From NCBI RefSeq assembly GCF_045037415.1, contig NZ_CP173438.1: a stretch of DNA of 64,000 nucleotides; one strand, given 5' to 3'. The DNA comes from Escherichia coli (GTDB taxonomy: Bacteria; Pseudomonadota; Gammaproteobacteria; Enterobacterales; Enterobacteriaceae). The position numbers were made by a program. Position 1 is the first letter of the stretch. Every line of letters starts with the position of its first letter. Of the stretch, positions 8,841-11,800 are shown piece after piece.

Positions 8841-11800
8841 TTAGTTAATTCTCTGTGTCGTGCGCGTCCCAGCTTGAAAAAACGTAATAATAGTGAAAGG
8901 TTTACTCATAAATGAGCGGCATTTTGCGTAAACCTGCGCCAGATGGCAACTTATTACAGCCATTGGCGGCACGCGTTGCTAATTCACGATGGTGATTTTA
9001 TTTCCACGCAAACGGTTTCGTCAGCGCATCAGATTCTTTATAATGACGCCCGTTTCCCCCCCTTGGGTACACCGAAAGCTTAGAAGACGAGAGACTTATG
9101 ATGGAAATTCTGCGTGGTTCGCCTGCATTGTCGGCATTCCGAATCAACAAACTGCTGGCACGTTTTCAGGCTGCCAGGCTCCCGGTTCACACTATTTACG
9201 CCGAGTATGTCCATTTTGCTGACCTCAATGCGCCGTTAAACGATGATGAGCACGCACAACTTGAACGCCTGCTGAAATATGGCCCGGCACTCGCCAGCCA
9301 CGCCCCGCAAGGCAAACTCCTGCTGGTGACCCCGCGTCCTGGCACCATCTCTCCCTGGTCTTCGAAAGCGACCGATATCGCCCATAATTGCGGTCTACAA
9401 CAGGTAAACCGCCTTGAGCGCGGCATGGCTTACTATATAGAAGCCGGTACGCTGACCAATGAACAATGGCAGCAGGTGACCGCTGAACTGCACGACCGCA
9501 TGATGGAAACGGTCTTTTTTGCTTTAGATGATGCAGAGCAGTTGTTTGCACACCATCAACCGACTCCGGTCACCAGCGTAGATTTGCTGGGGCAGGGCCG
9601 TCAGGCGCTAATCGACGCTAACCTGCGTCTTGGCCTGGCACTGGCGGAAGATGAAATTGACTATCTGCAGGATGCGTTCACAAAGCTGGGTCGTAACCCG
9701 AACGACATCGAGCTGTATATGTTCGCGCAGGCGAACTCCGAGCACTGCCGTCACAAAATTTTTAACGCCGACTGGATTATCGACGGTGAACAGCAGCCGA
9801 AATCGCTGTTCAAGATGATCAAAAACACCTTCGAAACCACGCCAGACCACGTTCTCTCTGCTTATAAAGATAACGCCGCTGTAATGGAAGGTTCTGAAGT
9901 GGGTCGCTACTTTGCTGACCACGAAACGGGCCGCTACGATTTCCATCAGGAACCGGCGCATATTCTGATGAAAGTTGAAACCCACAACCACCCGACGGCG
10001 ATTTCTCCGTGGCCGGGTGCGGCGACCGGTTCTGGCGGTGAAATCCGCGATGAAGGTGCCACCGGGCGCGGCGCAAAGCCGAAAGCCGGTCTGGTTGGTT
10101 TCTCCGTATCCAACTTGCGTATTCCGGGCTTTGAACAGCCGTGGGAAGAAGATTTCGGTAAGCCTGAGCGCATTGTCACCGCGCTGGACATCATGACCGA
10201 AGGCCCGCTGGGCGGCGCGGCGTTTAACAACGAATTTGGTCGCCCGGCACTGAACGGCTACTTCCGTACTTATGAAGAAAAAGTGAACAGCCACAATGGC
10301 GAAGAGCTGCGCGGTTATCACAAACCGATCATGCTGGCGGGTGGGATCGGCAACATTCGCGCCGATCACGTACAAAAAGACGAGATCAACGTTGGTGCGA
10401 AGCTGGTCGTTCTCGGCGGCCCGGCAATGAACATCGGTCTTGGCGGCGGCGCGGCGTCTTCCATGGCATCTGGTCAGTCTGATGCCGACCTCGACTTTGC
10501 TTCCGTACAGCGCGACAACCCGGAGATGGAGCGTCGCTGCCAGGAAGTGATCGACCGTTGCTGGCAGCTTGGTGATGCCAACCCAATCCTGTTTATCCAC
10601 GACGTTGGCGCAGGCGGTCTTTCTAACGCCATGCCGGAACTGGTGAGCGACGGCGGGCGCGGCGGTAAATTCGAACTGCGCGATATTCTGAGCGACGAGC
10701 CAGGCATGAGCCCGCTGGAAATCTGGTGTAACGAATCCCAGGAACGCTACGTGCTGGCAGTTGCTGCCGATCAGTTACCGCTGTTTGACGAACTGTGTAA
10801 GCGTGAACGCGCACCGTACGCGGTGATTGGTGAAGCGACCGAAGAACTGCATCTTTCTCTGCACGATCGTCATTTTGATAATCAGCCGATTGATCTACCG
10901 CTGGACGTACTGCTTGGCAAAACGCCGAAGATGACCCGCGATGTGCAAACGCTGAAAGCGAAAGGCGACGCGCTGGCCCGTGAAGGGATCACCATCGCTG
11001 ACGCGGTGAAACGCGTGCTGCATCTGCCGACCGTGGCGGAGAAAACTTTCCTGGTGACCATCGGTGACCGCAGCGTAACCGGCATGGTGGCGCGCGATCA
11101 GATGGTGGGGCCGTGGCAGGTGCCGGTCGCTAACTGCGCGGTCACTACCGCCAGCCTCGACAGCTACTATGGCGAAGCGATGGCAATTGGCGAACGTGCG
11201 CCAGTTGCGCTGCTGGATTTCGCCGCTTCTGCCCGTCTGGCAGTCGGTGAAGCGCTAACCAACATCGCCGCAACACAAATTGGCGATATCAAACGCATTA
11301 AACTTTCCGCCAACTGGATGGCGGCGGCAGGCCACCCTGGTGAAGATGCGGGCCTGTATGAAGCCGTTAAAGCTGTGGGCGAAGAACTTTGTCCGGCGCT
11401 GGGCCTGACGATACCGGTGGGTAAAGACTCTATGTCGATGAAAACCCGCTGGCAGGAAGGTAACGAAGAGCGCGAAATGACGTCGCCGTTGTCGCTGGTG
11501 ATTTCCGCATTTGCCCGCGTGGAAGATGTACGTCACACCATTACGCCGCAGCTTTCTACCGAAGATAACGCACTGTTGCTGATTGATTTGGGCAAAGGCA
11601 ATAACGCGCTGGGCGCAACGGCACTGGCGCAGGTTTATCGTCAGCTTGGCGACAAACCGGCAGATGTACGCGATGTTGCCCAACTGAAAGGCTTCTATGA
11701 CGCGATTCAGGCGCTGGTTGCACAGCGTAAGCTGCTGGCGTATCACGACCGCTCTGATGGCGGCCTGCTGGTAACGCTGGCGGAAATGGCCTTTGCTGGT

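Follow-up and report, generated by a model that had tools for sequence, protein, structure and literature searches.

The divergently transcribed genes mltF and purL of Escherichia coli are separated by an intergenic region of 257 nt (positions 8841-9097 of the 64-kb stretch of DNA analyzed here, which is referred to as the window), and the question raised by this region is whether a 16-bp imperfect palindrome within it, ACGCAAACGGTTTCGT at positions 9006-9021, serves as an operator for PurR, and which of the two adjacent genes such an operator would control. The gene purL (9098-12985, plus strand), which is the regulated gene, is contained in the list of open reading frames with a product of 1295 amino acids and corresponds to b2557 of K-12 MG1655, and its divergent neighbor mltF (7284-8840, minus strand) has a TTG start codon, encodes 518 amino acids, and corresponds to b2558. 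No difference from MG1655 exists in the 257 nt between the two genes, and the interval is found in 5425 of 5426 complete E. coli genomes. The palindrome is already known, being the PUR box of purL, which has long been described as part of the PurR regulon of E. coli. A study by Meng et al. from 1990 reportedly names purL in its title among the genes regulated through purR, and footprinting and fold repression at purL are said, by way of secondary citation, to have been described by He et al. and by Meng et al. in that same year. The operator itself therefore holds nothing new, and its value consists in being a positive control for the reading of raw sequence, in which both elements, operator and −10 hexamer, were located with single-base precision.

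The PUR box and its position in the purL promoter

Direct readout of the sequence at 9006-9021 gives acgcaaacggtttcgt, with ACGCAAAC as the left half of the box. When compared with the perfect palindrome ACGCAAACGTTTGCGT, 14 of the 16 positions match, two are mismatched, and the central CG (CpG) is present. The box is the sole match to ACGCAAACGTTTGCGT with at most two mismatches in the 64-kb window, and shuffled windows contain on average 0.10 matches of this kind, with 10 of 100 shuffles having one. Taken alone, this pattern count against shuffles is not overwhelming. A PurR weight matrix was constructed by symmetrizing 26 PurR motifs from Table 1 of Cho et al. (2011, PMC3159470), the purL and glyA motifs being excluded. 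On this matrix, the purL box obtains 20.6 bits of a maximum of 24.9, a score in the range between the sites of purH (21.3 bits) and purC (20.5 bits), with the purT site reaching 23.7 bits. According to the exact score distribution, chance would produce 0.0028 matches as strong as the purL box in 64 kb and 0.2 in a genome of 4.64 Mb. The box is well above chance, even if its position and its conservation are left aside. Two further PurR-type boxes occur in the window, one at glyA and one at glnB.

For purL, a region bound by PurR in ChIP-chip experiments is listed in Table 1 of Cho et al. (2011, PMC3159470) together with the motif ACGAAACCGTTTGCGT, which is the reverse complement of the 16-mer in the window, and the coordinates of the published region match the site in the window after an offset of 1978 nt between genome versions. 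In that work, in which purL was already among the previously characterized PurR promoters, enrichment of purL by PurR amounted to a log2 value of 1.88 in the presence of adenine and no peak was seen without it, and adenine repressed the genes of the IMP pathway in the wild type and not in a purR deletion mutant (Cho et al., 2011, PMC3159470). The initial annotation had interpreted 9006-9021 as a near-consensus PurR operator overlapping the purL promoter and had proposed a comparison with the published purL operator. Its coordinates for the box are exact, the match of 14 out of 16 positions and the matrix score agree with it, and the published motif turns out to be this very sequence.

The overlap with the promoter becomes clear from the mapped start of transcription. 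Sequencing with 454 technology mapped the start of purL, on the basis of one read, to −46 relative to the ATG (Mendoza-Vargas et al., 2009, supplementary file 3, PMC2760140), which corresponds to the G at position 9052 (plus strand), 46 nt 5′ of the ATG. In the same supplement, the σ70 −10 box for this start is given as ‘attcTTTATAATgacg’ (Mendoza-Vargas et al., 2009, PMC2760140). With regard to the features of a σ70 promoter, the −10 hexamer TATAAT (9039-9044, plus strand; −13 to −8) is perfect (6/6), the start supported by the one read is the 8th nucleotide after this hexamer, and the hexamer TTTCGT at the −35 position (9016-9021, plus strand), located 17 nt 5′ of TATAAT, shares 2 of 6 positions with TTGACA. 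Because of this weak −35 match, a consensus σ70 scan made no plus-strand call for the purL promoter. The −10 hexamer is separated from the start by a GC-rich discriminator, GACGCCC (9045-9051, plus strand). Given the start at 9052, the PUR box extends from −46 to −31 and thus overlaps the −35 position, TTTCGT being situated wholly within the right half of the box, which bears out the overlap with the promoter that had been claimed. The TATAAT hexamer had also been assigned its exact coordinates, whereas its distance from the box, initially given as about 18 bp, is 17 nt (9022-9038).

Upstream of the box, the AT-rich sequence GATTTTATTTCC (8994-9005, plus strand; −58 to −47) is similar to the distal subsite of an UP element and, judged by this similarity, might act as one. 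This stretch is kept mainly within the Enterobacteriaceae, and other families show AATAATAGCT instead. An IHF site predicted under purL (Mendoza-Vargas et al., 2009, supplement, PMC2760140) was considered as well and discarded, as it maps to 13142, 3′ of purL and 5′ of glmY, and is therefore no part of the purL promoter.

It is almost certain, in our judgment, that 9006-9021 is the PurR operator of the σ70 promoter of purL, where PurR probably competes with RNA polymerase. When hypoxanthine or guanine builds up, the PurR dimer would occupy the 16-bp purL box. Since this box contains the whole −35 position, PurR bound from −46 to −31 would compete with RNA polymerase for the −35 region and for upstream contacts, and initiation would be blocked. 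At low purine concentrations, PurR would leave the box and purL would be transcribed. What is established is the position of the box. From it we infer, as the simplest interpretation, that PurR represses by steric exclusion, the bound repressor keeping RNA polymerase off the promoter.

Conservation of the box and the core promoter

For comparison with other bacteria, purL starts were located with a degenerate ILRGSPALS pattern in one genome per species, so that the selection of loci was independent of the box. In Enterobacterales, 68 other loci carry the sequence [A/G]CGCAAACGGTTTCGT 5′ of purL, and they range from Escherichia to Yersinia, Serratia, Erwinia, Proteus, and Arsenophonus. When 63 whole intergenic regions from this order are aligned, 15 of the 16 columns of the box are at least 95% conserved and most of the flanking sequences are conserved to less than 60%. 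The deviation in the right half of the purL box, i.e., G at position 10 and T at position 13, is itself conserved across the Enterobacterales.

The promoter is conserved together with the box. Among 67 unique core promoters of Enterobacterales, the spacing of 17 nt between the box and the −10 hexamer is found in all 67, the −10 hexamer is TATAAT in 64 and TATACT in three, TTTCGT stands at the −35 position in 65, and the discriminator of 7 nt has a mean GC content of 84%. Within E. coli, 5387 of 5425 genomes share the 69-nt core promoter of purL with an identity of 99% or more.

Outside the Enterobacterales, purL of Pasteurellaceae is preceded by ACGCAAACGTTTTCGT, likewise in the 17-nt layout, and purL of Vibrionaceae by ACGCAAACGGTTGC[T/G]T about 29 nt 5′ of the −10 hexamer, which places the box just upstream of the −35 position. 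As a negative control, matches to the ILRGSPALS pattern outside the three gammaproteobacterial families were inspected, and no site above 6 bits occurs in the 300 nt upstream of them; these matches come from Opitutae, other Verrucomicrobia, and unrelated phyla and comprise purL-like sequences as well as chance matches, some of them not being purL.

The mltF side of the intergenic region and other readings of the box

The initial annotation had placed the divergent mltF start 165 bp from the box and had supposed that the mltF promoter may be located in this region as well. The distance is correct, 165 nt lying between the mltF start at 8840 and position 9006, and the second supposition is plausible, as a conserved minus-strand sequence provides a candidate. 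This candidate promoter (8921-8949, minus strand), obtained from the consensus scan and from conservation, consists of TTGCCA (8949-8944), a spacer of 17 nt, and CAAAAT (8926-8921). In the alignment of the 63 regions, conserved islands at 8919-8934 and 8946-8950 coincide with its two hexamers, and the only other strongly conserved parts of the intergenic region are the purL core promoter and the stretch adjoining the mltF start codon. An inverted repeat (8898-8911 and 8922-8935) was rejected as a conserved element, its right arm alone being conserved.

A second minus-strand sequence, CTGACG-18-TAAAAT (9024 to 8995), lies closer to the operator, with its −35 hexamer and spacer within the PUR box. 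If this were the mltF promoter, the box would also, or even mainly, control divergent transcription, and PurR would co-repress mltF and purL. In favor of such co-repression, the consensus scan reports the 9024-8995 site with 9 of 12 matches, its TAAAAT hexamer is part of an ATTTTA stretch conserved in Enterobacteriaceae, and the arrangement of the two genes is stable: 66 of 68 Enterobacterales loci retain the divergent mltF-purL pair, and in 56 of 63 loci the mltF start codon and the purL start are 209-214 nt (around 212 nt) apart. However, the scan of the minus strand yields two sites when 0.8 are expected by chance, so that single matches are weak evidence, and the AT-rich stretch is not conserved outside the Enterobacteriaceae. 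Moreover, the ChIP region is assigned to purL only, and neither mltF nor yfhD is mentioned in the main text of the ChIP-chip study (Cho et al., 2011, PMC3159470). The better conserved sequence at 8949-8921, which is a candidate on sequence grounds and in this respect the better one for the mltF promoter, is at least 57 nt to the left of the PUR box and does not overlap it; therefore, control of mltF by PurR is not expected. Co-repression of mltF through the box thus seems quite improbable. With respect to transcripts, mltF and yfhD are absent from the start-site supplement of Mendoza-Vargas et al. (2009, PMC2760140), and the list in the excludon paper includes the pair mltF-tadA and does not include mltF-purL.

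One might also consider that another regulator of the LacI family, e.g., a paralog of PurR, uses the site and acts, instead of PurR, as the main effector at purL, as a palindromic layout with a central CG is common to operators of this family. Yet the matrix on which the purL box obtains its 20.6 bits was derived from PurR sites only, and the score is as high as those of the best PurR sites, such as purT and purH. Furthermore, it was PurR itself that was immunoprecipitated on the site, and the repression of the IMP pathway by adenine was gone in the purR deletion (Cho et al., 2011, PMC3159470), which makes a different main effector highly improbable. That the 16-mer resembles the PurR consensus merely by chance and has no regulatory role, an idea to which the one shuffled window in ten with a comparable match might lend some support, is the least probable view of all and is already refuted by the adenine-dependent occupancy by PurR in vivo (Cho et al., 2011, PMC3159470) and by the near-invariance of the box, in contrast to its diverging flanks, across 68 other Enterobacterales loci, quite apart from its score and from its location exactly at the −35 position of a gene for purine synthesis. 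Overall, the reading of 9006-9021 as the PurR operator of purL is supported.

The transcription start region and comparison with known promoters

The purL leader comprises 46 nt (9052-9097, plus strand). It starts with GUUUCCCCCCC (9052-9062), and at its 3′ end stands the conserved GAAGACGAGAGA (9083-9094) with a weak Shine-Dalgarno sequence; both the beginning and the end are widely conserved. A structured leader RNA or riboswitch in the 5′ untranslated region of E. coli purL was considered as a reason for this and rejected, since the leader folds poorly, shows no consensus pairs, and has no match in Rfam. Its minimum free energy is −6.6 kcal/mol (z = +1.66), and 193 of 200 shuffled sequences fold at least as well. 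RNAalifold found zero consensus pairs in 61 aligned purL leaders, and a search of positions 8000-14000 against Rfam at E ≤ 1 returned nothing except GlmY and one weak chance match. Many genera possess an extra inner hairpin in the leader which is missing in E. coli. Two pairings found by hand at the 5′ end, CGUUUUC with GAAGACG and GUUUCC with GGAAAU at the start codon, were dismissed because changes on the coding side (in loci L007 and L121) are not accompanied by a compensating change. Similarly, CGTTTTCC at the start of the transcript was examined as a second PurR half-site and abandoned, the full 16-mer there scoring less than 7.5 bits.

Directly after the start, a run of T residues is present (GTTTC at 9052-9056), so that the transcript begins with G-UUU(U)-CC. 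Counted from the −10 hexamer, G or A followed by TTT stands at the 8th nucleotide in 54 of the 67 promoters and at most 2 nt from there in 64 of the 67, and the version of this start in purL of Pasteurellaceae is A-AUUUU-C. Among six other pur promoters of E. coli, for which likely −10 hexamers were chosen by eye, a comparable T-run exists in purM only, and GC-rich discriminators are apparent in five (purM, cvpA-purF, purT, purH, and purE) and not in purC.

The UTP-sensitive reiterative transcription known from other operons comes to mind here. The transcript from carAB P1 starts with 5′-GUUUGC and is subject to such UTP-sensitive reiterative transcription (PMC6245113). With the initially transcribed regions of carAB P1 and pyrBI, purL shares a likeness of the start sequence only (G-UUU-C), and like the promoters of this class (pyrBI, carAB P1, codBA, and upp) it has a run of at least three T residues. 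We do not file purL under the UTP-sensitive promoters, the resemblance being one of sequence. By analogy with carAB P1, the start region of purL might add, through slippage, a second layer of nucleotide sensing to that provided by PurR, although we consider this unlikely. If purL did slip in the manner of carAB P1, levels of pyrimidine nucleotides would tune a gene of purine synthesis at initiation. In a milder variant, the GC-rich discriminators may impose control by ppGpp/DksA on the regulon, which would link it to the stringent response or to growth rate. For the sensing of nucleotide pools at promoters, the T-run, the GC-rich discriminators, the spacing of about 212 nt, and the candidate mltF promoter might be of interest.

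Regarding the operator, the closest known system is the E. coli purL operator of Cho et al. (2011), and the site in the window is this very site, identical in sequence and gene context and without any difference. PurR is a dimer of the LacI family which binds DNA only when hypoxanthine or guanine is bound to it (PMC6245113), and its sites are generally located at the −35/−10 region (Cho et al., 2011, PMC3159470). The operators of purM, cvpA-purF, purT, purH, and purE, all of which are repressed by PurR when purines are present (Cho et al., 2011, PMC3159470), resemble that of purL in that a 16-bp box with a central CG is situated at or next to the −35/−10 region and is apparently followed by a GC-rich discriminator. 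They differ in spacing: 17 nt separate the end of the purL box from the −10 hexamer, so that the box takes the place of the −35 element, whereas this distance is about 6-7 nt for the boxes of purM and cvpA-purF and 0-2 nt for those of purT and purH, all four of which lie in the spacer. Most PurR sites overlap the promoter partially, the exceptions being the roadblock sites of purB and purR and the far-upstream site of carAB (reviewed in PMC6245113). The roadblock sites, which lie inside the transcribed region, and the site of carAB P1 at −128.5 have the repressor, the 16-bp motif, and the corepressors in common with purL. In contrast to purB and purR, where elongation is blocked, and to carAB, where PepA-dependent remodeling of the DNA is needed (PMC6245113), the purL site, which overlaps the core promoter, requires neither.

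Further PurR-type boxes and a predicted IHF site upstream of glmY

With a weight matrix built from 26 published PurR sites (Cho et al., 2011, Table 1; purL and glyA left out), a PurR-type box scoring 20.85 bits, AGGTAATCGTTTGCGT (19019-19034), is found 100-115 nt upstream of glyA (19134-20387), and it is the same as the glyA PurR motif listed beneath a ChIP-chip peak in that table (PMC3159470). Another box, ATGCAAACGATTTCAA (17168-17183; 14.2 bits), overlaps the end of glrR and precedes glnB (17233-17571) by 50-65 nt. Taken alone it is weak, since 0.37 matches of 14.2 bits are expected per 64 kb. 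It may be the known glnB operator, because Cho et al. (PMC3159470) name glnB as a known PurR target missed by their ChIP-chip. Downstream of purL, the small RNA GlmY is encoded at 13319-13466 (Rfam RF00128, 147 bits), and the predicted IHF site TAACTCATTGATTTTAAT, filed under purL in a published table (Mendoza-Vargas et al., 2009, supplement, PMC2760140), maps upstream of glmY at 13142-13159.

The mltF-purL intergenic region and the purL start codon

In 56 of 63 Enterobacterales intergenic regions, 209-214 nt separate the mltF start codon from the purL transcript start, and this spacing is held although most of the intervening sequence diverges. Two conserved islands, GCATTTTGCGTAAAC and GCAAC, make up a candidate mltF promoter, TTGCCA-17-CAAAAT, on the minus strand (8919-8950). 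At the other end of the region, E. coli purL opens with two tandem ATG codons (9098-9103). The true start may be 9101, as only this second ATG is conserved across Enterobacterales, many species having ATT ATG or ACT ATG; GAGAG lies 7 nt upstream of it.

The purL promoter and leader in relatives and in the pur regulon

At Vibrionaceae purL loci (L003, L005, L010, L020, and others), TATAAT follows the PUR box at a distance of about 29 nt, which places the operator upstream of the -35 element and not on it. A conserved GTGTTAC comes after the box, and the transcript start is devoid of a T-run. In the leader of many Enterobacterales (L015, L025, L038, L062, L036, and others) there is an extra hairpin of 7-10 bp, the stems of which differ in sequence between genera, e.g., AAGCGCC/GGCGCTT, GAAGCG/CGCTTC, or GAAGTGCTG/CAGTTGCTTC. 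It is missing from Escherichia, Kluyvera, Pseudocitrobacter, and some Citrobacter (L006; L025 has it).

Of six other E. coli pur promoters (purM, purE, purH, purC, cvpA-purF, and purT), all except purC appear to have a GC-rich discriminator in the 7 nt after the likely -10 hexamer, chosen by eye (TGCGCCG, CTGTGCC, GCGGGCG, GCGCCCC, and GCGCGCG). The purL discriminator, GACGCCC, is like these five, which hints at a stringent or growth-rate control common to the pur regulon. Across Enterobacterales, two segments of the purL leader are conserved far above the remainder, namely GUUU(U)CC at the transcript start (9052-9062) and the block GAAGACGAGAGA (9083-9094) before the ATG, and no RNA structure accounts for the conservation of either. 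The start GUUU(U)CC resembles GUUUGC, the start of the promoter carAB P1, at which UTP-sensitive reiterative transcription occurs.
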